Below the pieces are notes generated by a model. That model was not told the origin of the DNA. It searched no databases and saw nothing but the letters and a program-made list of their open reading frames with translations. The position numbers were made by a program, and so were the translations under genes. From a virus, in the IMG/VR virus record IMGVR_UViG_3300033233_000034, positions 5,000 to 68,999 of that record: DNA of 64,000 bases, one strand, 5' to 3'. Every line of letters begins with the position of its first letter. The first letter of the stretch is position 1. Below are positions 434-48,426 of this stretch, in pieces.

Positions 434-548
434 GATAATAACTTTTATAAATTTTATTTAAAAAATATCTTTCGCCTGATTAACGAAAAAATACTTTTTG
501 TACCCTATGCCGGAAACGATCCGGTATTAATACCATATAGGGTAAAAT

Positions 549-710
549 TCATATTTTTCTTAGTTCTAAACTAAAATTATTAAAACCGTTAATTTTATTA
601 AATCTTATTTCTTTTTCCAGGTACGTTGTACATTCTTTTTTCGTACCTTCCTTTAAAACGGTTTTTGAATTGTTATCGAATACTAGGTAATTAGCTTTTA
701 AATTTTTCAT
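549..710 (-). CDS. small hypothetical protein (53 aa, MKNLKANYLVF...LRKI)
   Basis: Translated by hand; below the ORF-track size cutoff; co-oriented with 11..433. Confidence 0.5.
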   Translation of the reverse strand: MKNLKANYLVFDNNSKTVLKEGTKKECTTYLEKEIRFNKINGFNNFSLELRKI

Positions 711-1651
711 ATTCTTATTTTTTAATTATTCCGAAATATATAAAATGGAATAATACCCTCCTAATTAAAAAGAAGTTATTTTTAACTAAAAATCTAATAA
801 TTGTAATCGTTATAAAAAGTAATCGAATTTAACAATTGTTATAAGCTCGTAAATCGAAAATATAAATAAAAGTAAAATTATTTTTTCTAAAAAAGATAGA
901 GCCTTAAAACGCCTTAAAATACAATTGTTAAAAAATGAAAAAGCGTAAAAGTAAAGAAGTAGATAAATTGATATAATATATAGGTTATTAAAAATTGTTG
1001 TACTAAAGTTGTACTAAATTAATTGAATAGAAGGAATAGATAAAATAAAGGTAAAAATAGCGATTTTAAGCGCGCTCCGATGGATACCAGGTCAAACCGC
1101 TAAAATAAGTCATTTTAACCATTGTACAACAAATAGTAATAAAGTTATGGTATAAAGTTATGGTATAAAGTAAAGTAATTAAATAGAAAGACTGTGGACC
1201 GGCCTGGTTGTCGAATGGTTTATGTCTGAAGGGGGCGTGGAGTACCCCTTACCAAATGTAGAATTTTTTAGACGTTTTTTTAAAAGAGCATAACAAAATT
1301 TCAAAATTTTTACAAGGATTTTTAAAACAACCATTTTAATACATCATAAATAAGTATAAAGACAATATAAGAAAATATTTTAACATAACATAAGATTAAT
1401 AAAAAAGGATTACTATTACCTTACTATATTATATTTATTATATTTATTATAGGTATTATTTTTATATTTTTTAAATATTACGCTACAGTCTTAAAAAATA
1501 ATATAATAGTTAAATAGTTGGTATTTACCTTTTTAGAGGATTGTAAGTACTTTGTATTTAAAAATAAAGTATATTTTATAGTGTAGGTATCAGGAATTAT
1601 TTATATTTTTCGATTTTTAAACCGAAAAACGTACATAGTATATAGTAACTT
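711..1651. other. AT-rich divergent non-coding region (promoters; possible packaging/terminus site)
   Basis: About 940 bp without ORFs between divergent genes, just upstream of terS; GC-rich patch at about 1190-1255. Confidence 0.55.
1141..1171 (+). repeat. 13-bp tandem repeat AAAGTTATGGTAT x2 plus partial copy
   Basis: Read directly from the sequence. Confidence 0.85.
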
Positions 1652-9828: not shown

Positions 9829-12759
9829 ATGAAATGGGTAGTTCCAAGAATATGGGAAGGAGGCACTTGTGTGATTATAGGTGGTGGACCATCTATGCTT
9901 AAACAATTTGATATACCTGTGGAAATTATACAAGGGGTGTATTCAGGAGAATTAAAACCAGCAGCTTACTCCCCATATCTTGACCCCATTCATAATATGC
10001 ACGTGATAGCCGTGAATGTAGCTTATCAAATAGGGGATTGGATTGATGTTTGTTTTTTTGGGGATAATTCAACATGGGATGAAGAAAAAGAGGAATTAGC
10101 AAAGTGGAAGGGATTGAGGGTTACTTGTGCGGAGGAATTAATAGATGACATACGCCTAAAACACCTTGAAAGAAATGGAAAAAAGAGAATGGGGATTTCA
10201 GTCGAACCGAATATGGTTAGTTGGAATAGCAATAGCGGAAGTGCTGCTATTAATCTTGCAGTTCATTTTGGTGTCAAAAAAATAATTCTTTTAGGATTTG
10301 ACATGAAACTTGATGAAGGTAGAAATCAACATTGGCATAAAATATATAAAAAGCAATTAAAAACAAAGGAAACTACATTAAATAGTACGTTTAGAAAGCA
10401 TTTGAATGGTTTTCAACAAATGAAAAAGGATTTGGACACTTTAGGTGTGGAAGTGATTAATTGTAGTCCTGAGAGTAGCATAACAGTATTTCCAAAAATG
10501 AATTTTAAAGACATTAACGTTCTTGATAATCCCGGCAATAATATAAATTTAATTTTTGAGAAAGAACAGGAAGAGATACACTATGATTGGAGGAATAAAA
10601 ATCAAATTAAAAAAATCTGTATAACCACCACCTTTGACAGAAATTATAAAGAAGCCGGAAAAACTTTATTTAATTCAATTAAACGACATACAGATTGCAC
10701 CGGAATAGATTTTAAAATTATCACATCGGACACGGAAGTAGTTAAAGACTTTGGGGAAGAAAATTGTTATTTTATTACTGAGGAAATAAAAAATAGATAC
10801 AGCAATGTTAAATATCACAAAGAATTAACAGTAGAAAAATATGCTTCTTCATGGTATCGTTTTGAAATATTTAATATGACTGAATATGATCGGGTTATTT
10901 GTATTGATTCTGATTGTATTTGTGTAGAGGATATTTCTTATCTATTTAGTGAAGAATTAAATCAGTATGATTTAATATCTGTTGAAGATCATATTGTTTC
11001 TAAATGTTTTGTAAATCTCGTTCCTGAATTAGAAAGAAATGGTTCCCGCCTTAGTAATCTTACCAAACGATTAAAAGAAGGAAAAATAGATATTCAACCA
11101 GCATTATTGGTGGCTAATAAATCTATTGTAAATAAATCTTGGTATGAAAAACTAATTTCTTTTGCAAATATAGTTCCTTTTTCATATTCTATTGATGAGG
11201 GGGTTTTAAATGATTTCATTTATCAAGAAGGTATAAAAATAAAATTATTACCATTAGAATGGGATTTTCAAGATATTTATGAAAAAGTATGTTTAGATTT
11301 ACTCGTTCCTACGAAACCAATCATCATTCATTGTCAAGAATCTAAACCATTTAAGAAGTCAAAAGCACAATTAGAGCCATATTTTCATAAATATCATGAT
11401 TTATGGTGGGAAGAAAATAAATTCAGTGTATTAAGCCAATCAAAAACAATCGTTGTTATTATAGTTTGGAATCGGTTTGAAAATTTAAGAAGATGGATTA
11501 ATTGCTGGAACCAATGTGATACCTCAGAAGCGGAACTTGTGGTTGTTCATAATCAGGAAACAGATAATCATAGGTATTGGCAACTGTGTAGTGATAACGG
11601 TATTAAATATGTATATCGTGAAAATGTTGGTTTTGATATTGGTGCTTTTCAGGATATCTGTAAAGAAAGATTGGCAAATTTTCCAAATGAATGGAATAAC
11701 ATGATTTGGGTTACAGACGATTGTATTCCAATGGCTAAAGATTTTGTTAGTCAGTATTTAAAACAATTAACAGATACTAACACTCCTTGTTATGAGATTT
11801 CAAAGGAGGTTAAAACTCATGTAAGAACTACTGGTTTTTTGATTACTAAGGAGATTGCAAAAAAATTAATATTTCCTAAAGACCCTATTCATAACAGGGA
11901 AGATTGTTATCAATTTGAGCATAAAAGCAAAAATGCTTTATATGAACAACTGATTAGTATGGGTAAACATCCGATAATGGTAAATAAGGATTTAAAAACA
12001 TCTCCATTATGGGATTCTGACGTCCGAGCGTACTTAAATTTAATGAAAAAACATGAAGAAGTATTTGCCCCATTAAAATCTGAAAAAACAGAAGAACAAC
12101 CAATAAGTATTTTGGATGAATTAGCTATAAAATATAAGGCAGATAAAAGTTCAAGATACCATAATTACGCATCTAAATATGATAAAATATTAACTCCTTA
12201 CAAAGACATTTTCACATCTATTCTGGAAATCGGGGTAGCTCAGGGACAATCAGTAAGAATGTGGACAGATTATTTCCCAAAGGCTAAAATTCATGGAGCA
12301 GATATTGATAAGGCTTCTGAAATATGTGAGGCTTTTTCTAATAGAATAAAATTTCATTTACTTGATCAAAGAGATGCTGCTCAACTAAAAAATCTTGAAC
12401 CGTATTCTCCATTCGATTTGATAATAGATGATGGTAATCATTTTTGGATGGAACAAATCCTTACTTTTAAAATTCTTTTTCCTTATGTACGAAAGGGTGG
12501 TATTTATATTATAGAAGATACAACTACTTCATATTGGAAAGAGTATAGAAATCATCCTATTTCAACAATAGAATATTTTAAGACTTTAATAGATGAAATT
12601 AATTTTAAAGGTGAGAAAGCAACTGTACCCCTAAATCCCCCTGAAGAATTTGGAGATTGGGAAAAGGGATGGCATTGTAGAGAGGATTGTCATACAACAG
12701 TCCCTTTATTTGAGTCAATTCAATTTATGAATGGTTTTATTGTAATATACAAAAGATGA
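9829..12759 (+). CDS. four-domain glycan-modifying enzyme: Maf/MptE-like transferase + GT8-like + GT2-like + class I SAM O-methyltransferase
   Basis: IIGGGPS...NSGSAAINLA...ILLGFDM; YDRVICIDSD, DEGVLN, SKPF; RENVGFDIGAF, WVTDD; LEIGVAQGQS, DLIIDDGNH, GGIYIIED. Confidence 0.8.
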   Translation: MKWVVPRIWEGGTCVIIGGGPSMLKQFDIPVEIIQGVYSGELKPAAYSPYLDPIHNMHVIAVNVAYQIGDWIDVCFFGDNSTWDEEKEELAKWKGLRVTCAEELIDDIRLKHLERNGKKRMGISVEPNMVSWNSNSGSAAINLAVHFGVKKIILLGFDMKLDEGRNQHWHKIYKKQLKTKETTLNSTFRKHLNGFQQMKKDLDTLGVEVINCSPESSITVFPKMNFKDINVLDNPGNNINLIFEKEQEEIHYDWRNKNQIKKICITTTFDRNYKEAGKTLFNSIKRHTDCTGIDFKIITSDTEVVKDFGEENCYFITEEIKNRYSNVKYHKELTVEKYASSWYRFEIFNMTEYDRVICIDSDCICVEDISYLFSEELNQYDLISVEDHIVSKCFVNLVPELERNGSRLSNLTKRLKEGKIDIQPALLVANKSIVNKSWYEKLISFANIVPFSYSIDEGVLNDFIYQEGIKIKLLPLEWDFQDIYEKVCLDLLVPTKPIIIHCQESKPFKKSKAQLEPYFHKYHDLWWEENKFSVLSQSKTIVVIIVWNRFENLRRWINCWNQCDTSEAELVVVHNQETDNHRYWQLCSDNGIKYVYRENVGFDIGAFQDICKERLANFPNEWNNMIWVTDDCIPMAKDFVSQYLKQLTDTNTPCYEISKEVKTHVRTTGFLITKEIAKKLIFPKDPIHNREDCYQFEHKSKNALYEQLISMGKHPIMVNKDLKTSPLWDSDVRAYLNLMKKHEEVFAPLKSEKTEEQPISILDELAIKYKADKSSRYHNYASKYDKILTPYKDIFTSILEIGVAQGQSVRMWTDYFPKAKIHGADIDKASEICEAFSNRIKFHLLDQRDAAQLKNLEPYSPFDLIIDDGNHFWMEQILTFKILFPYVRKGGIYIIEDTTTSYWKEYRNHPISTIEYFKTLIDEINFKGEKATVPLNPPEEFGDWEKGWHCREDCHTTVPLFESIQFMNGFIVIYKR

Positions 12760-19309: not shown

Positions 19310-22300
19310 ATGGCAGACTTAGGACAGTTATGGGTAACGTTGGGGATGAATACAGCAGCTCTTGTTAAAGGGGTGGCTGAGATACAACGTATGCAAAAAC
19401 AAATACAAGTGGCTACCGAAGCAGCTAATAAAGCACAACTAACATCTACTGAAAGAACAACAGCCGGACAGATTGCAGCCCATAATCGAGTAGCCCAAGC
19501 ATCTCAAGTTGCTAATACAAAAATAGTAGCGGATAGTACAAAAGCGGCAGCATTAACAGCTAGTGCTTGGCATAGTAAAATAAATCAAGTAGGTTATGAC
19601 TTCCAACGATTGGGAATGACTGCTTCTATGTTTATAACAGCTCCTTTAGCATTAATAGGGAAAGGTTCTTTTTCAACAGCTATGGAAATTGAATTTGCAG
19701 CTAAAAAGATTGTGGCTTTAGCTGGAGTTACGGGTAAAACTTTAGATTCTTGGCAAGGTGAACTTAGTAGGATTAGTGATTCTACTGGTAAAACGGCTTT
19801 AGAATTAAATACAGCTTTATATTTTATTACTTCATCAGGACAAAAAGGTGCTGAGGCTTTAAAAATATTAGATATATCGGCAAAAGCCTCAGCATCAGGA
19901 TTAGGGGAAACGGATGCTATTTCTCGATTATTGGTTTCATCCATGAATGCTTATGGTAAAGAGGTTTTAACATCTGCAAGAGCTGGAGATATTTTAACAG
20001 CAGCAGTAAGGGAAGGTACAGCGGAGGCATCTGATATGGCTAATCAAATAGGAAAAGTAGTACCTATGGCTAAGTTACTTGGTGTTTCTTTTGCACAAGT
20101 AGCAGGGGCTACGGCAGCTATGACTTTAACAGGTATGAATGCAGCACAAGCAACAACTTCCTTAACACAAATTTTTACACAATTATTAAAGAATAGTCAT
20201 GAAGCGGTAGGATTAATAGCTAAAGATCATCAAACGTTAGCTATGCTTCGTGCTGAATTAGTTGCTGGAAATTTACCTGATGTTTTGGATAAGATTAATA
20301 AAATAATGGAGGATTCAGGGAATACTCTTGCACAATTCTTTGGTAATAAACGATCTTTGACAGGGGGTTTAAATTTAATTAATGATTTAGAACGCACTAA
20401 AGCGGTAATGTTAGCAGTGGAAATGTCTGCGGGGGATTTAAGTAAAGGGTGGAGAGAAATGGATGATACCATGAAAAACCAATTAAAACATGCTACTACG
20501 GCTTTAAATGATGCTTTTAAAACTTTAGGTATGTCTATGCGTGGTTCTTTAATTTCCGTGTTTAAAGATTTTACAGTATGGATTAAAAGTGTTACCAAAG
20601 CATATTCAGAATTAACGGTATCGGCACAAAAATCTATAATGGTATGGGTGGGTGTATTAGCAGCTATTGGACCAGTATCTTTATTTATAACATTGATTAC
20701 CCGTTTAATGGTGGGATTTAATTATGCCATAAAAATAGTAACAGTTTCTTTAGGATTTTTGAGAACAGCTATGCTTACTTCGGGGGTTGGAGCCATATTA
20801 GTAGCATTAGGGGCAGTAGTGGCTTTAGGGGTTGGTTTGAGTATGTTTAGTCGTAGAAACGAAGAAGCAGCAATATCAGAAAAGAAATTAGGGGAAGCAG
20901 CAGAAGCAGCTAAAATTCAATTACAGGAGAATTTTGATTCAATTAAGGATATGATGACAACCACTCCTAAAATGAATCCTTATGAATTAGATGCTCAAAT
21001 ATTAAAAGTTAAAAAAGAAATTGAAGAATTAAAGAATGGTTATGCTTCTAAAGCTAAAGAAATTCAGGCTATAATAGACAAAGACCCTATTATTTTGAAA
21101 CTGAAAGCCAAAATGGATAGCAGTGATCCTGATGTTAGGAATAGTTATATTGCAGGTACTGACCGGTACATTTCTAAAAAATATAATATTCCTACGGATT
21201 CTCTTACATCTAATATTCCAAAATTAGATTCACTTTTATTAGCTGATCGTAGAGCAAAATTACTTGAATTAGCTAATACCACACAAGCTACGGACACAAT
21301 AGCACGAGGAGCAATAGCTATTTATCAAGCCGATATAGCTATAATGGAACAACTTAAAAAAGAATATAAAGGTAAAGAAGTAGAGTTTGAAAATACAGAA
21401 AAAAATAAACGTGCGGCTGATGCAATAAAAGGTGCTTATGATGATTATGCTAACGGATTGCAAAGAATAATAGCCCTAAGAAAAGTATTTGGGGAGTCCG
21501 TTGATGTTCTTGGTTTTAAATTTAATGCTGAAGAGGAATCCTATAAAATATTGGGAAATCTCGTAAATGCTTTAGGGGATACTTCAGAAAGAAATACACC
21601 AAAGTTTAAAAACTTAACGGTTGAATTAATACGGATGACACAAGCGATTAGAGATAAAGAACTTAGTCGTTTAGAAGCTGCTGGAATTAATACTACTAAA
21701 GATACAGGATATTTACCAAGCAGAGCCAAATCCTTACCTATGTTTGCACAGTTAGGAGGACAATTAGAAGTATCGATTAAAGGTATTCAAAATAATGGTT
21801 GGTTGAATAAAGAACTTATACCTACTTTAGTACAAGAGGCTCGTCATAGAAAAGAAATTAATAGGTTAATGGAACAAGCTCGTGTAATGGGTGTTGATCC
21901 GAAAGCTTTAAAAAACATAAAGGAAAGTGCTCAAGGATATGAAATGCAAAAAATATTTTTAGAGGGCTTATTAGAACCTTTAACAGAAGCTGAAATTAAG
22001 TTTCAGGAATTTAATAGTAATTTTCAATGGTTTGGGCAAAAGGCTTTAGAGTTTATTCAAACATACACAGAAATGATTACGAATAAACAACAAAAAGCAT
22101 ATGCTTTTATAGATAATATTGCTAAACGAGAATATAAATCAGCAGAATGGGTTACTAAACAAAAAGAAAAATTAGATGCTGAGTATAATCGTAAAAAGAA
22201 AATAGCATCTATTGCTTCCGTAGCGATTAATGGTGCAATGGCAGTTATGAATTTAGCAGCAACTTTACCCGGATCAGTATTAAATCCTTTATTTTACCCA

Positions 22301-22576
22301 ATGGCTGCATTGATTGCAGGGTTGACAATAGCTCAAACAGCTATTATAAATGGGGCGGGTATGGCTCAAGGTGGGACAATACCTTCAGGTTATCCAAATG
22401 ATAGTTACCCAGCTCGCCTAACGTCAGGGGAAATAGTAGTGCCTCCGGGAAAACTTCCAGAGTTCCGTGGTGGTATGAATCCTATAATAATTCATCTGAC
22501 AGGTAAACTTCTTGCAGAGGGTAACGACTTAGTTTATGTTATGGACAAACAAATAACTGTTAATAATAGTTACTAA
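19310..22576 (+). CDS. tape measure protein (TP901-like core)
   Basis: 1088 aa, Ala-rich helical, central hydrophobic segments, C-terminal MAQGG...PARLTSGE. Confidence 0.93.
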   Translation: MADLGQLWVTLGMNTAALVKGVAEIQRMQKQIQVATEAANKAQLTSTERTTAGQIAAHNRVAQASQVANTKIVADSTKAAALTASAWHSKINQVGYDFQRLGMTASMFITAPLALIGKGSFSTAMEIEFAAKKIVALAGVTGKTLDSWQGELSRISDSTGKTALELNTALYFITSSGQKGAEALKILDISAKASASGLGETDAISRLLVSSMNAYGKEVLTSARAGDILTAAVREGTAEASDMANQIGKVVPMAKLLGVSFAQVAGATAAMTLTGMNAAQATTSLTQIFTQLLKNSHEAVGLIAKDHQTLAMLRAELVAGNLPDVLDKINKIMEDSGNTLAQFFGNKRSLTGGLNLINDLERTKAVMLAVEMSAGDLSKGWREMDDTMKNQLKHATTALNDAFKTLGMSMRGSLISVFKDFTVWIKSVTKAYSELTVSAQKSIMVWVGVLAAIGPVSLFITLITRLMVGFNYAIKIVTVSLGFLRTAMLTSGVGAILVALGAVVALGVGLSMFSRRNEEAAISEKKLGEAAEAAKIQLQENFDSIKDMMTTTPKMNPYELDAQILKVKKEIEELKNGYASKAKEIQAIIDKDPIILKLKAKMDSSDPDVRNSYIAGTDRYISKKYNIPTDSLTSNIPKLDSLLLADRRAKLLELANTTQATDTIARGAIAIYQADIAIMEQLKKEYKGKEVEFENTEKNKRAADAIKGAYDDYANGLQRIIALRKVFGESVDVLGFKFNAEEESYKILGNLVNALGDTSERNTPKFKNLTVELIRMTQAIRDKELSRLEAAGINTTKDTGYLPSRAKSLPMFAQLGGQLEVSIKGIQNNGWLNKELIPTLVQEARHRKEINRLMEQARVMGVDPKALKNIKESAQGYEMQKIFLEGLLEPLTEAEIKFQEFNSNFQWFGQKALEFIQTYTEMITNKQQKAYAFIDNIAKREYKSAEWVTKQKEKLDAEYNRKKKIASIASVAINGAMAVMNLAATLPGSVLNPLFYPMAALIAGLTIAQTAIINGAGMAQGGTIPSGYPNDSYPARLTSGEIVVPPGKLPEFRGGMNPIIIHLTGKLLAEGNDLVYVMDKQITVNNSY

Positions 22577-22580
22577 CGAT

Positions 22581-25124
22581 ATGGCATACGGTAATAAATA
22601 TGATATTCGATGGGCTGGAAAAGACCTTAAGGGACATCTATACTTAGATAAGGATGCTTACGCTGGTGCAGTCGATACAAGCGTTCGTATCCCTTTCGAT
22701 AGTATATCCTATAATTATTTATTTGGTGACTGGAATGAGCCTGTAATCGGTATGCAATTAGAATTTGAGATTGTTAACGATAAAGCTAATTATTTTACTT
22801 TAGATGATTTACTAACATCTACTGAGGGTGAATATAAAGTTCGTTTGGTGGTAGATTATCCTACAACCTATACTCTATTTGAAGGATTCCTAAATTGTGA
22901 TACAGTTACTCAAAAATATTTACAGAAACAAAATATTAAATTTGTAGCTAGTAGTTACCTTTCTAAATTAGAAAATGATCATCCTATAAGTATTGATACT
23001 TTACAAAATAAAACATTTATTGATATTATAGATGAAATTTTGGTAAGTACGGGAGCATCCTATAATATAAAAATAAATAGTACTCTTCATGCTGAGGGGG
23101 ATGTTCTTTCTGCCGGAAAATCTTTGTTTAATCTCAATGGTTTTAATACGGAATTATTTTGGGAGGATGAAGTTGAGCGTAAATCCAGTTTAGATATTCT
23201 TAAAACTATATTAACTACTTTTGAGTGTTATTTGTATTGGTGGGGAAGTTATTGGTATATTGAACGCTATGAAGATATTTGGAAAGAATCTGTTTCATAT
23301 ATAGAATATACCACAGGAACACCTTATGCTCCTACTGGCACTGGAGCAGTGGTTGCAGGAACGAAAAGTATTAATAGAGTACATTATGATCCAATTACAA
23401 AAACAGGTTTACGATTTATTCAACAATCTCAAAATAGACATAGTATTCCAGGATTAAAAAGTATTCAAATAAATTTAGAGGATAAAAAATTCCTTAATTT
23501 GGTTAAAGCGGATTTAACAAACATAGGAACTACTTCAACGGCTGCACCTACTCCTGATTATAGAACATGGTTACGGTGGGTTGATGGGGATGTTGAGTGG
23601 GCGTGGGCTACAATAGGTCAACCAAAATCAAATATTAGTAATAGTATTTGTAGAATAGCTTGGGGAGGTATTCAAGGAGAAGAACTTGTATTTGATTCTT
23701 TTAAGGGTTTATATACTCAATTTAAGATAACGGTAACAGAATCTACTGAATTAAAAATAGCTTTTAAATACGCTGTGGATAGGTATGGGACGATAGCGCC
23801 GTGGAGTAATGCAAACTCACCTTCATTAGATGGTTTTATATTTCATTTTCCTTGGTATTTACGATCTGTTACAGATAGTGAATATATAACACAACCAAAC
23901 ATAGAAGTAGATTCATGGATAAAAAGTCCAAAAGATACTGAATTACGTGCTTTACAATATATACAGGTAAACGGATCATCCTTCAATCCTAAAACTAATA
24001 CAGTAGATGTAAGTGTGACTATACCTATTGGTAAAGTTGTTAAACAAGAATTAGAATTACCAGCAGGTTTATTGATAGGGGATATTTCTTTAGTATTGTG
24101 TATAGGATCAGAAGTAATAAAGAAACAGGATGTAGCAGATTCACAACCCAATCAGGCTTGGTTTGGTGATTTTGAAGTAACAGCTACAGATGAAAATCAA
24201 AATAATGTTATAGAGGGTAAAATTTCTACTAAATTTCTAAACAAAAAAACTATTCCCTTATCGTTATATGATTCTGAAAATGTTAATTATAAGAATGGTA
24301 TTGTACGTGGGAGTGACTTGTCTATAAGAACAGAAAAATGGGGAACCACTGGAGAGGCTACCGAAATAGTTCAAAAAGGAGTAGTTTGGTCAACAATAAT
24401 AAACCCAACAGTAGCATTAGCTACTAAAACTTTAGATGGTGCTGGTACAGATACTTTTACAAGTCTTATAACAGGGTTATCTCCCGGAACTACTTATTAT
24501 GTTCGTTCTTATTTTACCGATGCTTTAGGGGATACTTATTATGGGAATGAAATAGAATTTGCTACAACGGCTTTAGTTATAGGTAGTCCTTATATGGGTG
24601 GTAAAATTGGGTATTTGTATCAACCGGGGGATGGTCCTTATGATGCAAATGTTGTACATGGTATTATAGTTTCAGATTATGATATATCTTATTTATTTAC
24701 TTCTCATCCGGGGAAAAACTTTTGGTGTAGTTTACAAAGTGTTTCAAGTAATAATGTATCTTGTGATACAATATTAGGTTTAGGAACTCACGATGCTGAA
24801 GGGGGTAGAGTTAATTCCGATTTAATGAATGATAATGCTTTTGTATTGGATTATGCTATACATGATGTAGCTTTATATGATATGGGGAATTACACGGATT
24901 GGAAAATGCCAAGTATAGATGAATTAAATTTAATTAGAGGAAATAAAGTAGCTTTAGGAAATAATTTTGTTTCTGATTGGTATTGGAGTAGTAGTGAACC
25001 AAGTTTAGATGGTATTCATGGTGCGGGGGTAAAAGCATATGCTTTAAATTTTGGGAACACCTCTGTTAAGGATGCTTGGAAAAAGAATAATTGGAGGCGA
25101 GTACGTGCCGTAAGATATTTTTAA
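22581..25124 (+). CDS. tail tip/hub protein with C-terminal partial FN3 and DUF1566 (Lcl C-type lectin-like) domain
   Basis: Follows the tape measure gene; GVVWST...TGLSPGTTYYVRSY; DWKMPSIDEL, YWSSSE, VRAVRYF. Confidence 0.75.
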   Translation: MAYGNKYDIRWAGKDLKGHLYLDKDAYAGAVDTSVRIPFDSISYNYLFGDWNEPVIGMQLEFEIVNDKANYFTLDDLLTSTEGEYKVRLVVDYPTTYTLFEGFLNCDTVTQKYLQKQNIKFVASSYLSKLENDHPISIDTLQNKTFIDIIDEILVSTGASYNIKINSTLHAEGDVLSAGKSLFNLNGFNTELFWEDEVERKSSLDILKTILTTFECYLYWWGSYWYIERYEDIWKESVSYIEYTTGTPYAPTGTGAVVAGTKSINRVHYDPITKTGLRFIQQSQNRHSIPGLKSIQINLEDKKFLNLVKADLTNIGTTSTAAPTPDYRTWLRWVDGDVEWAWATIGQPKSNISNSICRIAWGGIQGEELVFDSFKGLYTQFKITVTESTELKIAFKYAVDRYGTIAPWSNANSPSLDGFIFHFPWYLRSVTDSEYITQPNIEVDSWIKSPKDTELRALQYIQVNGSSFNPKTNTVDVSVTIPIGKVVKQELELPAGLLIGDISLVLCIGSEVIKKQDVADSQPNQAWFGDFEVTATDENQNNVIEGKISTKFLNKKTIPLSLYDSENVNYKNGIVRGSDLSIRTEKWGTTGEATEIVQKGVVWSTIINPTVALATKTLDGAGTDTFTSLITGLSPGTTYYVRSYFTDALGDTYYGNEIEFATTALVIGSPYMGGKIGYLYQPGDGPYDANVVHGIIVSDYDISYLFTSHPGKNFWCSLQSVSSNNVSCDTILGLGTHDAEGGRVNSDLMNDNAFVLDYAIHDVALYDMGNYTDWKMPSIDELNLIRGNKVALGNNFVSDWYWSSSEPSLDGIHGAGVKAYALNFGNTSVKDAWKKNNWRRVRAVRYF

Positions 25125-25136
25125 AAAATAGAATTA

Positions 25137-25496
25137 ATGGAAATTACAACAACAGCAATAACCAGTATTACAACGGTATCTGCAAAGAGCGGTGGGGTTA
25201 TAACTACTATTGCGGGGGATTATTCCCCAATAGTGGATAAATTATTACATAATAAATGGCAATTGTATAATAAAACCCGTCAAAAATTAACAGCTGATGT
25301 AAAGATGGTTGCCCCTATACAACCATTGAGTTTATTTGAAGATAGTAAACAAATAGAAATTATTGGTGGGGGTGTGGGTGGAGCTGATGTTTTAAAAAAG
25401 TTTGTATTAACTGCATACAGATTCAAACCTATAAGTGGGATTTGTACAGTAGAATTACAAGAATATGATAATACAACAGAAGTAACTTTAGTATAA
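25137..25496 (+). CDS. tail protein; N-terminus is the missing first part of an FN3 repeat
   Basis: TTTAITSITTVSAKSGGVIT matches repeat starts in 29439..32075; same frame as the upstream gene. Confidence 0.65.
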   Translation: MEITTTAITSITTVSAKSGGVITTIAGDYSPIVDKLLHNKWQLYNKTRQKLTADVKMVAPIQPLSLFEDSKQIEIIGGGVGGADVLKKFVLTAYRFKPISGICTVELQEYDNTTEVTLV

Positions 25497-26233
25497 TGGC
25501 AATTAATGTAACAGTAACTAGAAGATTTAGAGGGGCTAAGGACAAAACAGCTTCCAGTCCTTCTTATATGTTTCAGAATCCACAAGCATTAAGTGGAGGT
25601 GTTACTATGGAACAGGTAAATGCTGCTATATTGAATAAAAAATCATTACATGGTTTTGAAAGAAGTTCAAACAATGTTTTGTCATTTAACGCTGGGACTG
25701 GTGTTTTTTCTATTACTGGAACTCAATTTGGGATTTGGTATATGGGGTATCAGTATTTAAAAGACACTGAAACGGTAACGCTCACCCTTGAAAGTGGAAT
25801 ACCTTCTCGATGGTTTGTTTTTTGGGATAATGAATTAACCTTATCTGTAAATGAAACTTGTGATGTTTATGAATCCTTATTAGTAGCTATTCTTATTTGG
25901 AATGGGACTACTGGTGAAATTGTAGATCGTAGGCATCCAGCATATACAGATTGGGATGATATGGAAGCACAAAAAGTACCCATAATAATTCCTTTTACAG
26001 CCGTTGTTAATCCGATTCTCCCAATAGACTACCCTACTCATACATATCAGGATTTGTTTGTTACAAAATACGGAGAGTACCCAAATTTACAGTTAATAAT
26101 CGAAGTAGATGCAAATACTGAATATATTAACACTGTACAACCCATCCGGCACCTATCAGATGGTAAGTTGGATTATATAGATTGGTATTTAGACGGAGCA
26201 GAAGTAACTGGGAAAATAAAATTATCACGATGA
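25496..26233 (+). CDS. putative tail/fibre-associated protein
   Basis: Beta-rich ORF in the tail module, translationally coupled on both sides. Confidence 0.55.
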   Translation: MAINVTVTRRFRGAKDKTASSPSYMFQNPQALSGGVTMEQVNAAILNKKSLHGFERSSNNVLSFNAGTGVFSITGTQFGIWYMGYQYLKDTETVTLTLESGIPSRWFVFWDNELTLSVNETCDVYESLLVAILIWNGTTGEIVDRRHPAYTDWDDMEAQKVPIIIPFTAVVNPILPIDYPTHTYQDLFVTKYGEYPNLQLIIEVDANTEYINTVQPIRHLSDGKLDYIDWYLDGAEVTGKIKLSR

Positions 26234-29200
26234 AAAAGATATTTGTCACATTTTGCCTTGTCGGTTTTTGCCTTGTCGGTTTTGGGCAATTTCGTTCAGA
26301 GACTCCTCCCGCTGTTTCTGACACAGGAAGGCACGCACTATTAACACCTCCGCCATTTACTTTATGGTTCCCTCCCGGCGACACAATTCGCAGGATTTAC
26401 ATTAACATGGGAAACAAATACAAATATGAGTCACTAATTACGGGCCAAAGATTAAATACAATAATTGATAGTCTGTTATTAGTTACTTCAGGAATTTATA
26501 AGCGGTTAGACGACAGCACCGCTCGTGACGGATTTGCAAAAAGGGAGTATGTTCAACACTTTTTCGTTCAAAAGCAAGATAGTGATAATTTAGAAACAGG
26601 TTATTTCCCTAATTCACGAGCAGATACAAAAACCGATACTTCTTTTCATGACAATCTTAGGCATTTAGCTGAAAGAAATTATTCTTCATTAACAAATGTT
26701 CCAGATTTAGGATTAAAAAGGGATACGTCAAGCCATGATAATTTAAGGCATTTAACTGAAAAGTCTTATAATTCGCTAACTGAAACGCCTAATCTAACAC
26801 TAAAAACCGATACGTCCTTCCATGATAATCTTAGGCATTTAGCTGAAAGAAAATATGAATCTTTAACAGATAAACCTGATTTAGATATTTATAGAGAAAA
26901 AACAACCCCAATAACATACGCTGAAATAACAAGTAAGCCAAATTTAGCTATATATAGAGAGAGAAGTGATACAATAGATCATGATGGTACAGCCTCCGTT
27001 GGTGAATTAAGGAAAAAAATACCCTTAGCAGAAAAAGGGGTAAATAATGGTGTTGCCACATTAGATGCTGGCGGTAAGGTTCCTGCATCACAATTGATCG
27101 CTACCACATATCCTCACAAGGGCGTTTGGAATGCTGCAACAAATACTCCAACCTTAGCAGATGGTACAGGAACAGCAGGATGGGTTTATCTTGTTACAAC
27201 AGGAGGAACTGTCAATCTTGGTAGTGGAAATATAACTTTTGCAGTAAATGAACATGCAGTATATAGTGGTACAATTTGGCAAAAATCAGGATCAAGCAGT
27301 GCTGTTTCTTCCGTTAACTCCCAAACAGGAGTAGTGGTATTAAACACGGATAATATTGCAGAAGGTAGTACAAATAAATACAGTACTGGTAATCTTTGGA
27401 AAAGAACGGGGACTACACTTTCACCTAATACTACAAATGACAATATAGATAATGGCAATGGTAAAGTAACCACGGGGATGGTTTCTTCTGATAGTATTAT
27501 GGCTAAAAATAGAACAAGTGGTTTGGTTTTTGACACTTCTGGTTCTGTGACAATTGACACTAGCTATACTACATATTCTACGACATTGGATAAAATGGAG
27601 TATAGTACTAATGCATTAGCACAAATGGCTTATGTGACGAGTGCGGATAGTGTAGCTGAAGGTGCTCAAGGAACAATTGACGCTGAAACAAAGTTATTAG
27701 TACATTTTAATGGAGCAAATGACGGTACTACATTTTCAGACACAGCAACAAATAAGCAAATAACAAACCCGAACAATGGGGTGCTTACTAAAACAGGAAT
27801 TAAGAAATTTGGTACAGCAGCGGGATATTTTAATGGAGCGAGCTATCTTCATTTGAACGATAACGCAGATTGGGACTTTGGAACAGGAACATTTTCGGTA
27901 GACTTTTGGGTATATCCAACTTCTGCAGATTTTTCCGGTTACTTGCCGATGGTTGCGTCTGGCAATTATAATACACCAGAAAACACGCACGGCTGGACAA
28001 TATATACTAGAGATAGTGGTGTTGTAAAATTATCAACAAACGGTTCCTCTGTTAATCAGGTTACATCGGGTGATCAAGTACTAACCATGAATACTTGGAA
28101 TCACATTGCCGTGATAAAAAAGGGTACAGGGAGTACGGATTTTAATATCTATGTGAATGGAGTTGCTGGGAATGCTCCCGAGACAGGTAACGTAATTACA
28201 GACGCGGGAACTTATGGTTTGACAATTGGCAGGTATTATAATGACTTAAACGGTTATTATTATACAGGTTATTTGGATGAACTTAGAATATCTAAAGGCG
28301 TCGCCCGCTGGACTTCCAATTTTACATTACCTGCAAGACAATATCCATATGTACAAGCTGGATCGAGTGGAATAGCGTTACAAGTACAATCGACTACGAT
28401 TAAGACAGAAGGATCAAATGCTATTAAAGGTATTGCAATGAAAGATTCAACTGGGTTTACCCTTACTCGCTCTATTGTAGAACCTATCAATCTTTCAACA
28501 GCTGATACTTTAAAATTTGATATTCGTTCAACCAGAACAGGGCAAAATCTTAAAGTAACTGTAAAAGATAAAACAAGTAATTATGCCATAGACGTAACAC
28601 CAACGATAGCTGTTGCAAATCAGTATCAAACCGTTCGCACAAACATAGCTAATATAGCACCTACAAATAGAGATTCTATCAACAAAATTATCATAACTGT
28701 TATAGATGCTGCTGCCGCAGATACTTTTTATGTGGACAATATGTTTACTAATGAAAAGGACACTACTATAACAGAAACGATGCATGGTGGGGGTATTGAA
28801 TTAAGGTTACGGGGATACAAGGTATTTGTAGCTGATTCCTCTAAAAATATAGAGGTCGTAAATAAACTCAAAGGTCCAGTTATTAATGTAACAGATTCAT
28901 TGACTGTTCAGGCAGCTACTTATACATCTGGTGGCTACAGTATTCTTGTGCGTAATGACGCCAATGGTCGGGTTGAAAAGATACCATCAAGTTCTATTTC
29001 ATTAACAGATACCAAGTGGAATGGTGGTTCAGAAACACTTGTTGCAGCAACAGGTAGGGCAAGTCTTGGATTAGGTACGGCAGCATTAAGTTCAGCATCT
29101 ACATTTGTTCCTTATACTGGAGCAACAGGAAATGTAACTCTTGGAGCAAATACTATCACGGCTGGTAATTTCATTTTGTCCTCAGATAGGAGATTAAAAA

Positions 29201-29442
29201 TGAAAATAAAACCTATTGATTTTACTGGAGTTAATATTAAGTATTATCAATATAGAGCTATATCTGATACCTCACAGATTAGGTATGGCGTTATGGCAGA
29301 TGAAGTACAAAAAACAAATCCTGAATTAGTACGAAAAGATGAAAATGGAATGTTAAGTGTTGCCTATATCGATTTGCTTATTAAGGAAATAGCAGCTTTA
29401 AAGCAAAGAGTTTTGGAACTTGAAAAAACAATACAACCATGA
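26230..29442 (+). CDS. tail fibre-like protein: signal peptide, 29-aa repeats, LamG domain, C-terminal S74 intramolecular chaperone
   Basis: Likely start 26230 (ATGA overlap): MKKIFVTFCLVGFCLVGFGQ; FSVDFWVY/WNHIAV/GYLDELRISK; SDRRLK...YGVMADEV...VAYIDL. Confidence 0.82.
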   Translation: MKKIFVTFCLVGFCLVGFGQFRSETPPAVSDTGRHALLTPPPFTLWFPPGDTIRRIYINMGNKYKYESLITGQRLNTIIDSLLLVTSGIYKRLDDSTARDGFAKREYVQHFFVQKQDSDNLETGYFPNSRADTKTDTSFHDNLRHLAERNYSSLTNVPDLGLKRDTSSHDNLRHLTEKSYNSLTETPNLTLKTDTSFHDNLRHLAERKYESLTDKPDLDIYREKTTPITYAEITSKPNLAIYRERSDTIDHDGTASVGELRKKIPLAEKGVNNGVATLDAGGKVPASQLIATTYPHKGVWNAATNTPTLADGTGTAGWVYLVTTGGTVNLGSGNITFAVNEHAVYSGTIWQKSGSSSAVSSVNSQTGVVVLNTDNIAEGSTNKYSTGNLWKRTGTTLSPNTTNDNIDNGNGKVTTGMVSSDSIMAKNRTSGLVFDTSGSVTIDTSYTTYSTTLDKMEYSTNALAQMAYVTSADSVAEGAQGTIDAETKLLVHFNGANDGTTFSDTATNKQITNPNNGVLTKTGIKKFGTAAGYFNGASYLHLNDNADWDFGTGTFSVDFWVYPTSADFSGYLPMVASGNYNTPENTHGWTIYTRDSGVVKLSTNGSSVNQVTSGDQVLTMNTWNHIAVIKKGTGSTDFNIYVNGVAGNAPETGNVITDAGTYGLTIGRYYNDLNGYYYTGYLDELRISKGVARWTSNFTLPARQYPYVQAGSSGIALQVQSTTIKTEGSNAIKGIAMKDSTGFTLTRSIVEPINLSTADTLKFDIRSTRTGQNLKVTVKDKTSNYAIDVTPTIAVANQYQTVRTNIANIAPTNRDSINKIIITVIDAAAADTFYVDNMFTNEKDTTITETMHGGGIELRLRGYKVFVADSSKNIEVVNKLKGPVINVTDSLTVQAATYTSGGYSILVRNDANGRVEKIPSSSISLTDTKWNGGSETLVAATGRASLGLGTAALSSASTFVPYTGATGNVTLGANTITAGNFILSSDRRLKMKIKPIDFTGVNIKYYQYRAISDTSQIRYGVMADEVQKTNPELVRKDENGMLSVAYIDLLIKEIAALKQRVLELEKTIQP
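26251..26280 (+). repeat. 15-bp tandem duplication (FCLVG x2) in the signal peptide
   Basis: TTTTGCCTTGTCGGT twice in tandem. Confidence 0.85.
26628..26885 (+). repeat. three 87-bp (29-aa) intragenic repeats K(T/R)DTS(F/S)HDNLRHLxE
   Basis: Copies 1 and 3 are nearly identical in DNA. Confidence 0.85.
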
Positions 29443-32075
29443 AGGCAAAAGTATTTATTATATTTTTATGTCTCTGGGGGAATCTGTTTGGGCAATCAGT
29501 ACCCAATACCAGTACCTTTTCATTACAAGACGTGGTGAATGTAGTTACTGGCACAACTCTTATTCAGTCTTTCACAAATTCAATTGATGCTCAATTTGAT
29601 CCTACCTATAAAGGATCAAAAGACCGATTATATAATTTTAGAAATTATACAGGGATTGTATTAGCTCTTCCTACTGTAAGTACATATGATGCAAGTAATG
29701 TAACAGCTTCTTCTGCTTTACTCGGTGGCAATGTTTCGTCGGATGGTGGTTCTTATGTTACAATGAAAGGTATCGCTTGGTTTGCAAGCATGGGGGGTAG
29801 CGTACCCTATGCCGTTAATGGGTACAGTCCAGGGGTGGGTTCATTTTCATTTACAATAACAGGATTAAATACCGGAACTGTTTACTATGTTGCTGTATAC
29901 GCTACTAATAGTATTGGTACGAATTATGGCAACAAAGTATCCTTCACTCCTTATGCAGCCACATATGTCCCTATTGTAACTACTTCGGTTCCTTATAATA
30001 TAACTTCAGTAGGAGCAATCGTTGGGGGAAATGTAACATCGGATGGAGGGGCTTATGTGTCAGTAAAAGGAGTGTGTTGGAATACGTCCCCGAATCCTAC
30101 AACAAATAATTCAAATAACAATTATGGTTCTGGAACTGGTTCTTATTCATATTACCAAACAGGATTTTCTGCAAATACACTTTATTATGTTAGGGCATTT
30201 GCAACAAATAGTGTTGGTACAAGTTATGGAAATCAAGAAACGTTTACAACTTTAGCAAATATCACAACTCCAACGGTAACAACTACTCCATCTAGCAATG
30301 TAACGGCATCGACTGCAACCAGTGGGGGGAACGTAACAAGTGATGGTGGTGCCACGGTTTCAGCGAGAGGGGTCTGTTGGAGTACATCATCGTATCCAAC
30401 AATTTCAGATAGTAAAACAAGTGATGGTACAGGTACAGGTACTTTTACAAGTAGTATAACAGGATTAAATTCAGGTGCTACTTACTATTATCGTGCGTAC
30501 GCAACTAATTCAGCAGGGACTGCTTATGGAGCCAATTATAGTTTTTCAATAGTATCTATAACCCTACCAACCGTGACAACTACATCTGTTACAAGTTATA
30601 CGTCAACAAGTGCTATAATGGGAGGAAATGTAACAGCGGATGGTAATGCCACGGTAACAGAAAAAGGTGTTTGTTATTCAATAAGCCCGAATCCTACAAC
30701 AAATAATTTTAAGATGGGTTTGGGGAATGATACTGGTGTATTTAGTGGAACAGTAAATGGATTAAATCAAAATTCTACTTATTATGTAAGAGCCTACGCT
30801 ATAAATTCTATGGGTACAGCCTACGGAAACCAAGTATCATTTACTACTTCCATAATATTATCTGCACCCACGGTAACGACAACAGCGGCAACCAATATAA
30901 CTACATCAACTGTTTATTTAGGTGGAAATGTAACTTCTAGCGGAGGAGCAACAGTATCATCGAGAGGGGTATGTTATTCAACATCTCAAACGCCAACACT
31001 GGCCAGTAGCGTGCATTTTTTCGGTTCTGGTACCGGGGAATTTTCTTTTGTTCAAACAGGCCTGACTTCAAACACTTTATATTATGCTCGTGCATTTGCA
31101 ACCAATTCGGTGGGCACTTCCTACGGAAATCAAGTGTCTTTTACAACAGCTACAAATATAGTCGTTCCAACTGTTAGTGCCACTACATTACTTACTGATG
31201 CTGGATGGACAGCTGCATCGTCAGTTACCTCTGATGGTGGGGCAACAGTTACAGTTAGGGGATTCTGTTGGTCAACGTCACCAAATCCAACAACGGCAAA
31301 TTCCCATAATGATAGCGGGTCCGGCACTGGTGTTTTTGTGGGAACTCTTACTGGATTATCGGAGGGTACGGCTTATTATGTTCGGGCATACGCTACGAAT
31401 AGTGCTGGTACAGGATATGGATCACAAGTATCTTTCATTACAGGTGTAACCACAACGACCCCAACGGTCACCACGGCTGCGATCACAAATATAACAGCAA
31501 CAGGAGCGACCGGGGGCGGTGAAGTAACAGCTACCGGAGGGCTAACAGTTACCTCTCGTGGCGTTCAATATTCAACAAATCCACTATTTCAACAAAATTC
31601 TGTTATAAGCTCAGGTTCGGGATTAGGAGTGTTTACAGTTAATATGGCTGGATTAAATACCGCTACCACCTATTACTACCGTGCTTATGCTGTAAATGTA
31701 AATGGGTATAGTTATGGAAGTATTGTAAGTTTTGTACCGCAACCTCCAGTTTGTGTTAAGCCAACAAATTTACCAATAATAAACCTCGTAACGTCTGCAA
31801 ATGGGATTCTTATAAATTCTTCACAATTAGCTTGTTATTGGTCAAATGCATCTAATCAGAGTGGAACTGTTTATGGATCGTCACAAAGATATATTCAGCA
31901 AGTACAAGTAGGAGGTTCTGAAGTTCCTTACGATATCATTTATAAATATTTAGATACAAGCTGTGATTTAGTTGCTGATGGATATTACATAACACTTTAC
32001 ACTATTACAGGATCATATTATCTATATCCAGTTCAAATAATATCAGGAAAAACATATATAATAAATTGTCCTTAA
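29439..32075 (+). CDS. adhesin-like protein with signal peptide and 7 FN3-like repeats
   Basis: MKAKVFIIFLCLWGNLFGQ; about 100-aa repeats PTVTT..GGNVTSDGG..GVCWST..TYYVRAYATNS.GT.YG. Confidence 0.82.
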   Translation: MKAKVFIIFLCLWGNLFGQSVPNTSTFSLQDVVNVVTGTTLIQSFTNSIDAQFDPTYKGSKDRLYNFRNYTGIVLALPTVSTYDASNVTASSALLGGNVSSDGGSYVTMKGIAWFASMGGSVPYAVNGYSPGVGSFSFTITGLNTGTVYYVAVYATNSIGTNYGNKVSFTPYAATYVPIVTTSVPYNITSVGAIVGGNVTSDGGAYVSVKGVCWNTSPNPTTNNSNNNYGSGTGSYSYYQTGFSANTLYYVRAFATNSVGTSYGNQETFTTLANITTPTVTTTPSSNVTASTATSGGNVTSDGGATVSARGVCWSTSSYPTISDSKTSDGTGTGTFTSSITGLNSGATYYYRAYATNSAGTAYGANYSFSIVSITLPTVTTTSVTSYTSTSAIMGGNVTADGNATVTEKGVCYSISPNPTTNNFKMGLGNDTGVFSGTVNGLNQNSTYYVRAYAINSMGTAYGNQVSFTTSIILSAPTVTTTAATNITTSTVYLGGNVTSSGGATVSSRGVCYSTSQTPTLASSVHFFGSGTGEFSFVQTGLTSNTLYYARAFATNSVGTSYGNQVSFTTATNIVVPTVSATTLLTDAGWTAASSVTSDGGATVTVRGFCWSTSPNPTTANSHNDSGSGTGVFVGTLTGLSEGTAYYVRAYATNSAGTGYGSQVSFITGVTTTTPTVTTAAITNITATGATGGGEVTATGGLTVTSRGVQYSTNPLFQQNSVISSGSGLGVFTVNMAGLNTATTYYYRAYAVNVNGYSYGSIVSFVPQPPVCVKPTNLPIINLVTSANGILINSSQLACYWSNASNQSGTVYGSSQRYIQQVQVGGSEVPYDIIYKYLDTSCDLVADGYYITLYTITGSYYLYPVQIISGKTYIINCP

Positions 32076-48422: not shown

Positions 48423-48426
48423 AGAA

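Follow-up and report, generated by a model that had tools for sequence, protein, structure and literature searches.

An FN3-DUF1566 adhesin module inserted in permuted order into a phage tail hub gene, with one FN3 domain divided over two predicted proteins

In chaperone-usher pili, a subunit that misses one C-terminal strand is completed by donor-strand complementation, the donor being the next fibre subunit, and Dutta et al. are said, going by the title of their 2005 paper, to have engineered fragment complementation of FN3. Phage tail-tip proteins that gain sugar-binding modules in frame and phage genes that are split by selfish DNA are each known separately. In siphophages of Gram-positive bacteria, the 'evolved' forms of Dit and Tal carry inserted carbohydrate-binding modules, according to the excerpts cited (PMC10688798, PMC7533335), and the sections of a further paper on which we draw give nrdA of Aeromonas phage Aeh1 (mobE), T4 39/60 (mobA) and 43A/43B as split phage genes (PMC2988022). 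For Lcl of Legionella, a C-type-lectin-like C-terminal domain has been described, with roles in carbohydrate recognition or trimer formation suggested in the part of the report used here (PMC11162425). Here we analyse a tail gene within a 64,000-nt stretch of DNA (the window, taken at its full length throughout) that makes up most of the 68,999-bp virus record IMGVR_UViG_3300033233_000034, from a siphophage-like virus. What appears new at this locus is that both situations are combined: an inserted adhesin is read within both halves of the interrupted gene, the division of its own fold falling at a turn. Full-text literature searches (supplements not covered) turned up no account of an arrangement of this kind.

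The two parts of the interrupted gene lie next to each other on the + strand and are referred to here as open reading frames A and B. Gene A (22581..25124, 847 aa) is the next gene after that of the tape measure protein. Its residues 1–590 (22581..24350) match positions 1–568 of a profile of uninterrupted homologues and are predicted, on the basis of structure models and VIA-align comparisons, to form a gp27-like baseplate hub without its last domain; a CBM4-like beta-sandwich would be nested within this hub at residues ~305–536 (23493..24188). Residues 591 to ~665 (24351..24575) correspond to strands C-G only of an FN3 domain (FN3 profile positions 28–92, 76.2 bits), and residues ~666–847 (24576..25121) to a DUF1566 or Lcl_C-like, lectin-type domain that closes the chain with RAVRYF-COOH. 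The TAA stop of A (25122–25124) and a 12-nt spacer (together 25122..25136) are followed by the ATG of gene B (25137..25496, 119 aa). Residues 1–24 of B (25137..25208) comprise the Met and strands A-B of an FN3 domain (FN3 profile positions 3–26), and residues 25–119 with the stop codon (25209..25496) match positions 567–646 of the uninterrupted-homologue profile, which would be the last domain of the hub fold.

A preliminary description of the window, made from its letters alone, had stated that A and B share one frame, and direct inspection showed this to be so, the gap consisting of TAA and the four sense codons AAA ATA GAA TTA. It had also placed the exchange at a TT dipeptide present on both sides. 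The codon of W587 lies at 24339–24341, T589-T590 of A are encoded at 24345–24350 and T23-T24 of B at 25203–25208, so that the coordinates given for the dipeptide are correct, as is the span of 858 bp between the proposed junctions (24351..25208).

A search with residues 1–590 of A retrieved 57 proteins, including the window's own. Twenty-five of these (632–768 aa) are uninterrupted, and their last 80–95 residues match B (blastp E 4e-18 to 7e-6) from B residue ~23–32 to the end of B. A further 31 (773–1072 aa) are of the A type, i.e. they end in an FN3/DUF1566 part, and the remaining one, P0038, is cut short. The existence of uninterrupted single-gene homologues, which the preliminary description had proposed as support, was thus confirmed in 25/57 proteins, and a wider search brought the number of full-length uninterrupted proteins to at least 85. 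When a hub profile of 646 positions was built from 23 uninterrupted homologues, A-type matches ended at positions 561–568 and B-type matches began at 563–568 (7/7 loci); by these coordinates, no host-gene sequence is lost or duplicated at the split.

The same picture was obtained starting from B. A profile of 7 B proteins was searched against 1.84 billion representatives, giving 248 matches at E<=0.001, and the best 150 of the 248 were examined. Among these matches were 21 free-standing proteins of 107–124 aa that match the full profile, uninterrupted proteins that align from position ~24–31 only, at their own C-termini, and multi-FN3 proteins that match positions 2–27 at 5–16 places each. Short matches without the N-terminal piece begin before hub profile position 565 and are therefore fragments of uninterrupted genes, and three proteins of 65–73 aa (P0086, P0166 and P0174) are ambiguous fragments that could not be placed. 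Relatives without the module that are nonetheless encoded as two genes had been named as evidence against the insertion; none was found, the only such case being a frameshifted copy (L006), apart from the three ambiguous fragments. A word-based search with B alone returned no match but B itself, so a profile search was needed, and a second viral scan with the B alignment found no further split locus. Taken together, interruption of the tail gene, permuted order of the module and division of its FN3 domain are well supported as real features, rather than artefacts, across a diverse clade of uncultured phages.

Several of the collected loci have features of their own. In L006:4001-6023, an uninterrupted-type hub gene is frameshifted before its last domain, through either a sequencing error or a broken gene. 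L056, L057 and L058 belong to one 165,133-bp metagenome contig with three copies of the hub locus at a spacing of 69,649 bp, which resembles a head-to-tail assembly of a single phage genome of ~69.6 kb. L043, the sole match within the genome collection, lies on a 33,389-bp contig assigned to a Candidatus Paceibacterota bin; since the split hub and tape measure genes are both on this contig, it probably derives from a phage and was binned together with that genome.

The division of the FN3 domain was examined using a profile of 93 positions built from 116 intact FN3 domains of other proteins. All 31 A-type proteins match this profile from 25–30 to 90–93, and the N-termini of all 22 B-type proteins (~25 residues) match it from 2–4 to 24–32, with a median of 8.75 and a minimum of 0.3 bits. 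These complementary positions bear out the preliminary description of a tail gene interrupted by a circularly permuted FN3-DUF1566 module. The highest score among 110 shuffled B N-termini was 4.2 bits, and 20/22 real ones scored above every shuffle; 23 uninterrupted hub proteins gave nothing better than -0.4 bits. In a six-frame FN3 scan of the window (520 segments), seven intact repeats, the truncated FN3 of A and an orphan piece in B were the only FN3 matches, the orphan piece covering FN3 positions 3–26 at 12.5 bits (E 0.0036 among the 520 segments). The seven repeats all lie in an 878-aa protein of the same FN3 subfamily (29439..32075, + strand; Pfam fn3 E 3.8e-10), which is outside the split gene and serves for comparison only; they run from positions 1–3 to 91–93 and score 75–121 bits. 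The Pfam fn3 model itself gives no match to A. Neither A nor B has the seven strands of the fold in one chain; they are divided into C-G and A-B.

The remainder of the module resembles known surface proteins. The homologues listed for the module number 120 (141–450 aa), 113 of them with a DUF1566 part, and among these matches a complete FN3 precedes DUF1566 in 111/113; of the other two, one matches FN3 from profile position 9 onwards and one not at all. Many of the canonical FN3-DUF1566 proteins have lipoprotein-type signal peptides, and the named ones are from Bacteroidota. DUF1566 ends 0–3 residues from the C-terminus, with the motif RAVRxF, in 99/113 canonical proteins listed, as it does in A. 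The DUF1566 part of A matches PDB 8q4e (E 3.3e-5), and homologues of A carry PF07603 (Lcl_C); homology of A to DUF1566/Lcl_C is therefore supported despite a score of A itself that falls below the Pfam cut-off (see below). As a separate observation, the FN3 part of A (24419..24506) and one repeat of the 878-aa gene (30407..30494) have 76% nucleotide identity over 88 nt; no other repeat of the module was seen in the window.

The identity of the host protein came from fold comparison. An AlphaFold2 model of the uninterrupted homologue P0031, built from an 85-row alignment, had a mean predicted local distance difference test score (pLDDT) of 91.6 and a predicted template modelling score (pTM) of 0.89, and its best Foldseek matches were tail-tip and baseplate hubs. 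Using VIA-align, this model gave Z 19.0 to the PVC central spike 9qgm_8A (root-mean-square deviation (rmsd) 4.5, 303 aligned), Z 17.8 to T4 gp27 1k28_D (rmsd 3.9, 316 of 364, range 12..683) and Z 16.8 to Mu gp44 1wru. A readthrough model of the window's own product gave Z 18.8 (rmsd 4.7, 316 aligned, range 15..963), 17.9 and 16.3 to chains of these kinds, with ranges extending to 963–967. Residues 332..547 of the uninterrupted model gave Z 12.1 to a Bacteroides sugar-binding protein, indicating a nested CBM4-like sandwich, and the window model matched the BT_4411 sugar-binding protein 3see (Z 12.9, range 305..536) and the CBM4 1gui_A (Z 9.5, 307..536). This nested domain is joined to the hub chain at both ends within one polypeptide. 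A gp27-like baseplate or tail-tip hub is thus well supported by these models as the host protein, and since the hub fold extends to the last residue of the uninterrupted model, the part encoded by B would be the hub's last domain.

Sequence comparison alone had been silent on this assignment. No Pfam or PHROG family was found for residues 1–590 of A, nor any useful match for uninterrupted members, and comparison of the hub profile with PDB sequences yielded nothing at E<=1. None of PF06605 (Prophage_tail), PF13550 (Phage-tail_3) and PF14594 (Sipho_Gp37) reached E<=10 anywhere in the 68,999-bp record, although PF14594 was matched in no control genome either and its negative result is weak. Leads to Sipho_Gp37, Prophage_tail, Phage-tail_3 and the fourth domain of a hub accordingly received no confirmation from sequence profiles; the later fold search agreed with a hub. 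The hub family is absent, by tblastn, from 50,697 cultured-phage records, where the sole match was to FN3. A distant relative from a cultured phage is gp59 of Cellulophaga phage phi18:1 (hhalign probability 95.9%, E 6e-9, over the first ~250 residues), which is encoded after the tape measure gene and is entered in its record as a virion structural protein by tandem mass spectrometry. The gene after the tape measure gene of Croceibacter phage P2559Y has no similarity to the hub (hhalign probability 0.2%). Our analysis thus assigns a fold and a tail-hub role to a large family without Pfam or PHROG annotation, with at least 85 full-length uninterrupted and 31 split members.

Members of this hub family were found to carry other additions. 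Five split-type proteins of 1031–1072 aa (P0009, P0013, P0015, P0019 and P0037) have an extra in-frame insert of ~190–240 residues after hub residue ~30; it matches Fib_succ_major (PF09603) in P0015, P0019 and P0037, and is of similar size without a Pfam match in the other two. P0037 belongs to a different subclade from the other four. P0138 carries an in-frame addition of ~200 residues at the same linker or next to it (hub profile position 566), P0124 has ~150 extra residues at hub profile 317–334, and in P0026 (=L003) and P0191 a complete FN3 follows the last hub domain.

The history of the insertion was traced on two trees. In a hub tree (first 560 columns, 57 rows, IQ-TREE quick search), the 31 split forms fall on one branch with a Shimodaira-Hasegawa-like approximate likelihood ratio test (SH-aLRT) value of 99, and one change of the split trait suffices (0/500 shuffles as good). 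In a module tree (143 rows, FastTree), the 31 phage modules form one branch against 112 canonical ones, with support of 96. Pairwise identities of hub and module are correlated (r 0.68; 0/2000 permutations as high). The more distant loci (24–31% identity) that show the last hub domain are all uninterrupted, and members of the split clade are mutually only ~40–50% identical. The uninterrupted proteins nearest to this clade are P0043 and P0052. It is well supported, judging from these trees, that the split arose once and long ago, and that the module has since co-diverged with the hub.

Comparison of the junctions suggests how the two genes were joined. Across the family, the junction motif of A is ...RTERW-G-x-x-G-G-...KGVCW and that of B is ...SGG-x-I-T-G-x-x-G-x-Y-x-PIVD...KFQLYN; uninterrupted hubs have ...RTxxW-T-x-D-G-x-x-Y...KFxLYN, and in intact FN3 the turn linking strand B to strand C reads T-S-D-G-G. 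The element shared at the junction throughout the family is therefore a glycine-rich turn, which reads W-G-x-x-G-G in A, T-G-x-x-G-x-Y in B and W-T-x-D-G where the gene is uninterrupted. The TT dipeptide by which the preliminary description had joined the halves is present in the window, but it is not conserved and represents the window's own version of this turn. In intact FN3, 13 residues separate GG from GVCW (94/102 matched, out of 116), and in uninterrupted hubs the distance from W to the KFQLYN-like motif has a mode of 17 residues (23/42 matched, out of 85). The same lengths in split forms are 12 in A (30/31) and 19 in B (12/20 matched, out of 22), i.e. a total of 31 observed versus 30 expected (12+19 vs 13+17). 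On this evidence, the hub and the adhesin would have had a similar turn at the point of exchange. The hub junction and the FN3 junction fall at matching points, and the insertion site is constant across loci. One crossover with a circular adhesin gene, or copying of one unit of a tandem pair, would each give the observed order; the topology thus amounts formally to a single reciprocal crossover in which the donor is circular or tandem, and integration of a circle is consistent with it.

The preliminary description had gone further and proposed an 858-bp circle that integrated into the tail gene. As to topology and junction lengths, this stands as one consistent route; as to an active 858-bp element, it does not, given one old event. 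That the stretch is a presently mobile cassette, which leaves as a circle and inserts itself into tail genes, would agree with the permuted order and the reciprocal junctions, both of which are expected of circle integration, and yet we regard it as highly improbable. The insertion arose once, module and hub have diverged together since, and its point is identical in all loci. No tyrosine integrase, serine resolvase or reverse transcriptase (RVT_1) was matched in the 68,999-bp record, no repeat of the 3' end of the module occurs elsewhere in the window, and guanine-cytosine content is flat across the module. Contigs of 4 runs contained no joint that skips the module; this counts weakly, as contigs are blind to rare forms and hence silent on rare excision. 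One contig of an independent run (X4, record 18) spans the right junction without differences, and run X1 may represent the source sample.

Whether A and B are made as one chain or two was assessed in 10 distinct split loci (the window, L001, L004=L049, L005, L007=L008=L054, L009, L043, L044, L046=L047 and L050). In 10/10 of these, B lies directly downstream of A and begins with ATG followed by strand A. The preliminary description had allowed for readthrough of the TAA, and a single fused chain, made by readthrough or frameshifting and containing the FN3 as a circular permutant, would suit the four loci (the window, L004, L043 and L050) in which A and B are in the same frame with no further stop between them. 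In the other 6/10, however, B is in another frame than A. The spacer is 2–15 nt in 8/10 loci and 85–92 nt in L044 and L046, where it has stops in all three frames and the stop of A is TAG instead of TAA. An ATG precedes strand A in every locus, and folding of the junction RNA is no better than that of shuffles (z 0.01). Because the frame of B differs in 6/10 loci and two spacers have stops in all frames, readthrough was rejected for the family, and we give a fused functional product next to no chance. Separate translation of A and B is well supported by this comparison of loci, and since the gaps between them are short, coupled translation is suggested.

Two further candidates were rejected. 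For a split intein, no Hint domain was found; the C-terminus of A aligns to the end of Lcl_C (residues 764–845 to profile 35–117 of 117), B has no Pfam family and its N-terminus consists of FN3 strands A-B. DUF1566 is a known target domain of diversity-generating retroelements, as stated in the passages cited (PMC4159848, PMC5758913); no RVT_1 was found in the record and no template repeat in the window.

The readthrough model was used to view both products together, with A and B of the window as one chain of 971 residues, the TAA read as Q and a five-residue tether between them, based on an alignment of 133 rows that included uninterrupted homologues. It had a mean pLDDT of 84.2 and a pTM of 0.82. 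The hub part of A (residues 1–590) is mostly above pLDDT 90, strands C-G of its FN3 (591–660) are at 70–91 and the DUF1566 part (661–847) at 32–81; strands A-B of B (853–876) are at 33–56, with a single short strand at 869–872, and its hub domain (881–970) is at 82–98. Alignments of hub structures to this model, which extend to model residues 961–971, are as good as those to the uninterrupted model. The hub domain of B would, with confidence according to the model, occupy its old place.

How the two proteins associate is the point at which the readings part. Association could run through the hub fold only, with residues 1–24 of B a leftover of the insertion that has no structural role, and with the five-strand FN3 remnant of A either folding alone or serving as a flexible linker to the lectin domain; we consider this account unlikely. 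The model favours it insofar as the hub domain of B is placed confidently while strands A-B reach only pLDDT 33–56, and insofar as strands C-G of A reach 70–91 without a confident partner. Other split phage enzymes reassemble without an added clasp, in the account cited above (PMC2988022). Conservation speaks against it. The A-B piece is kept in 22/22 B-type proteins and in 10/10 loci, with the canonical residues T6 (frequency 0.86 in split vs 0.91 in intact domains), I12 (0.77 vs 0.74), A17 (0.86 vs 0.87), G20 (0.91 vs 0.88) and G21 (0.91 vs 0.91). Identities of the A-B and C-G parts are 0.38/0.475 in split forms versus 0.45/0.64 in intact domains, so that relative A-B identity is not lower and the piece is no more relaxed than the C-G part. 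The small FN3 piece is, by these measures, conserved, and at ~40–50% identity within the clade an unused 24-residue leader should have decayed or vanished. Furthermore, strands A and B make up two of the three strands in one sheet of the FN3 fold.

Contacts between the two pieces were also examined with a mean-field coupling model from 263 intact FN3 domains (effective number of sequences, Neff, 198). The strongest couplings between the A-B and C-G parts of intact FN3 link column pairs 6-89, 21-89, 20-63, 21-61 and 20-36, and the canonical residue pair is kept at these in 9, 9, 8, 10 and 9 of 10 split loci, respectively. Cognate pairing of A and B scored 1377 versus 1308 +/- 37 when permuted, with 599/20000 permutations as high, a weak and exploratory result. 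Conservation and couplings thus favour a two-chain FN3, through which A and B would reassemble.

We propose the following explanation. In one ancestor of the split clade, recombination would have placed an FN3-DUF1566 adhesin gene in the short linker that precedes the hub's last domain, in a reciprocal and nearly seamless exchange inside a turn common to both partners (T-x-D-G). The hub chain would then enter FN3 at strand C, continue to the C-terminus of the lectin-type domain and stop, giving protein A, and a new chain would begin at FN3 strand A, pass strand B and exit into the last hub domain, giving protein B. The two would be translated apart, with the ATG of B usually 2–15 nt past the stop of A, and the hub domain of B would re-dock at its old place in the hub. 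The FN3 pieces, side by side at the old linker, would form one seven-strand sandwich out of two chains, and the product would be a complete hub bearing a lectin-like domain with a free C-terminus, presumably displayed on the tail tip. The ancestral gap from the end of the hub part of A to the start of the hub domain of B is ~8–9 residues. Cutting at a turn would leave the cut ends adjacent, so that hub ends and FN3 pieces may draw each other together; because the fold of the inserted adhesin is divided at a turn, the two host fragments would emerge side by side. As for why the gene was split rather than extended, a DUF1566 domain that needs a free C-terminus cannot nest in frame, and keeping the adhesin's stop codon would solve this.

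We place the probability of this overall explanation, i.e. a hub gene split by recombination with an adhesin whose products A and B reassemble, including a two-chain FN3, at roughly 60%. Several points weigh against it. FN3 is not confidently completed in the single-chain model with its artificial five-residue tether (strands A-B at pLDDT 33–56), the DUF1566 part is poorly modelled (32–81) on an alignment that is shallow there, with ~27 rows, and the confident placement of the hub domain of B leans on the 85 uninterrupted rows of the alignment and on the artificial single chain. Lcl_C (PF07603) scores on A are 29.8 and 32.7 bits, both below the Pfam cut-off of 34.9. The coupling test comprised 10 pairs, scored with a model of our own making (Neff 198). 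Association of A and B does not require complementation of FN3, since the hub fold could by itself keep them together, as happens with other split phage genes. Lastly, no cultured phage carries the gene, going by the tblastn comparison above. The more specific claim, that a natural two-chain FN3 clasp arose through a single reciprocal crossover, the donor being a one-gene circle or a tandem pair, and that the halves are re-tied by fragment complementation, is tentative and we hold it to be possible but doubtful.

A two-chain FN3 could also be formed between protomers. Hubs of the gp27 type are trimeric, and strands A-B of B might complete the FN3 of a neighbouring A, a protomer swap that would cross-link the ring. 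No result distinguishes a link within a pair from one between pairs, and DUF1566 of Lcl forms trimers, according to the part of the report cited (PMC11162425). The old linker of ~8 residues, however, implies that the hub end of A and the start of the hub domain of B are adjacent within a protomer, which would favour the local partner, and we think a swap improbable. Speculatively, a trimer-forming lectin on a trimeric hub would fit.

The surrounding genes are those of a tailed phage. Directly upstream of the hub gene, the tape measure protein gene (19310..22576, + strand) matches 16 PHROG tape-measure families (best E 1.4e-36), and a tape-measure C-terminus lies upstream of the hub homologue in 23/43 fetched loci, plus the window itself as self-control. 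The record also encodes terminase, portal, capsid, major tail and tail-chaperone genes. Since its large terminase most resembles those of Cellulophaga, Croceibacter and Riemerella phages (34–38% identity), phages of the split clade probably infect Flavobacteriia, as far as sequence can tell. A scan of local features of the locus found no tRNA or Rfam match, and neither promoter-like sites (24 found vs 21.5 expected) nor terminator-like sites (4 vs 1.9) were enriched.

Other genes of the window are recorded here as side observations. Downstream of B, a 1086-aa tail-fibre-like protein (26182..29442, + strand) ends in a Peptidase_S74 chaperone domain; both this product and that of 29439..32075 have signal-peptide-like hydrophobic N-termini, which is odd for virion proteins. 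Within the head/tail structural block, a 976-aa open reading frame (9829..12759, + strand) has sialyltransferase-like, glycosyltransferase family 8 and methyltransferase matches, and a methyltransferase and a glycosyltransferase are encoded at a comparable position in Cellulophaga phage phi18:1. The family A DNA polymerase is encoded in two genes (46630..48054 and 49804..51066, both on the - strand), a second split gene in this phage: one gene has the exonuclease and a uracil-DNA-glycosylase-like domain, the other the polymerase part. Three open reading frames lie between them (48051..49379 region), including those of ThyX and a DUF1937 protein.

If FN3 is indeed formed from two chains here, the locus would illustrate a route by which a domain with a free C-terminus can enter the interior of an essential, ring-forming protein, and a natural gene fission that was created and repaired by one event. 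It would also provide a small, naturally selected complementing pair, consisting of 24 residues and a five-strand remnant, that could serve as a natural heterodimerising tag in protein engineering.

Compared with known gp27-like hubs (T4 gp27, Mu gp44, the N-terminal part of siphophage Tal, VgrG and PVC spike bases), the hub described here is predicted to have a similar fold (Z 17–19, 283–316 aligned), and its gene likewise lies directly after the tape measure gene. It differs in having no sequence-family match, in its nested CBM4-like domain and in the encoding of its last domain as a separate polypeptide. With 'evolved' Dit and Tal, as they are presented in the excerpts cited, it has in common a tail-tip structural protein that carries sugar-binding modules, and members of the hub family are decorated at several sites. 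The inserts of Dit and Tal are described there as being in frame, with both ends of the module joined to the host chain, whereas the module described here is permuted, brings its own stop and start, and leaves the host protein in two chains (10/10 loci).

In the sections cited on Aeh1 nrdA, T4 39/60 and 43A/43B, a contiguous coding region has come to specify two polypeptides that need reassembly, and uninterrupted relatives exist, as here. In those cases a homing endonuclease gene or an untranslated spacer intervenes, and the halves are given without added parts. No endonuclease open reading frame lies between A and B, the spacer being 2–15 nt in 8/10 loci and 85–92 nt without an open frame in two; unlike in those split genes, only 12 nt lie between the two genes of the window, and the insert is translated within both halves, its own fold divided.

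The surface proteins of Bacteroidota with FN3-DUF1566 (264–450 aa) have 35–41% identity to the phage module over 98% of its length, among the matches listed; some are named DUF1566 or Lcl C-terminal domain at NCBI, and the RAVRxF motif is common to them and A. In these canonical proteins FN3 is intact (111/113), in the order A-G and then DUF1566, whereas in the phage module strands A-B are missing from the chain that carries the rest. By analogy with strand complementation in Ig-like folds, an incomplete beta-sandwich would here likewise be completed by strands of another chain, in this instance N-terminal ones. In contrast to pili, two N-terminal strands are missing rather than one C-terminal strand, and the partner would be the other half of the split hub rather than the next subunit of a fibre.

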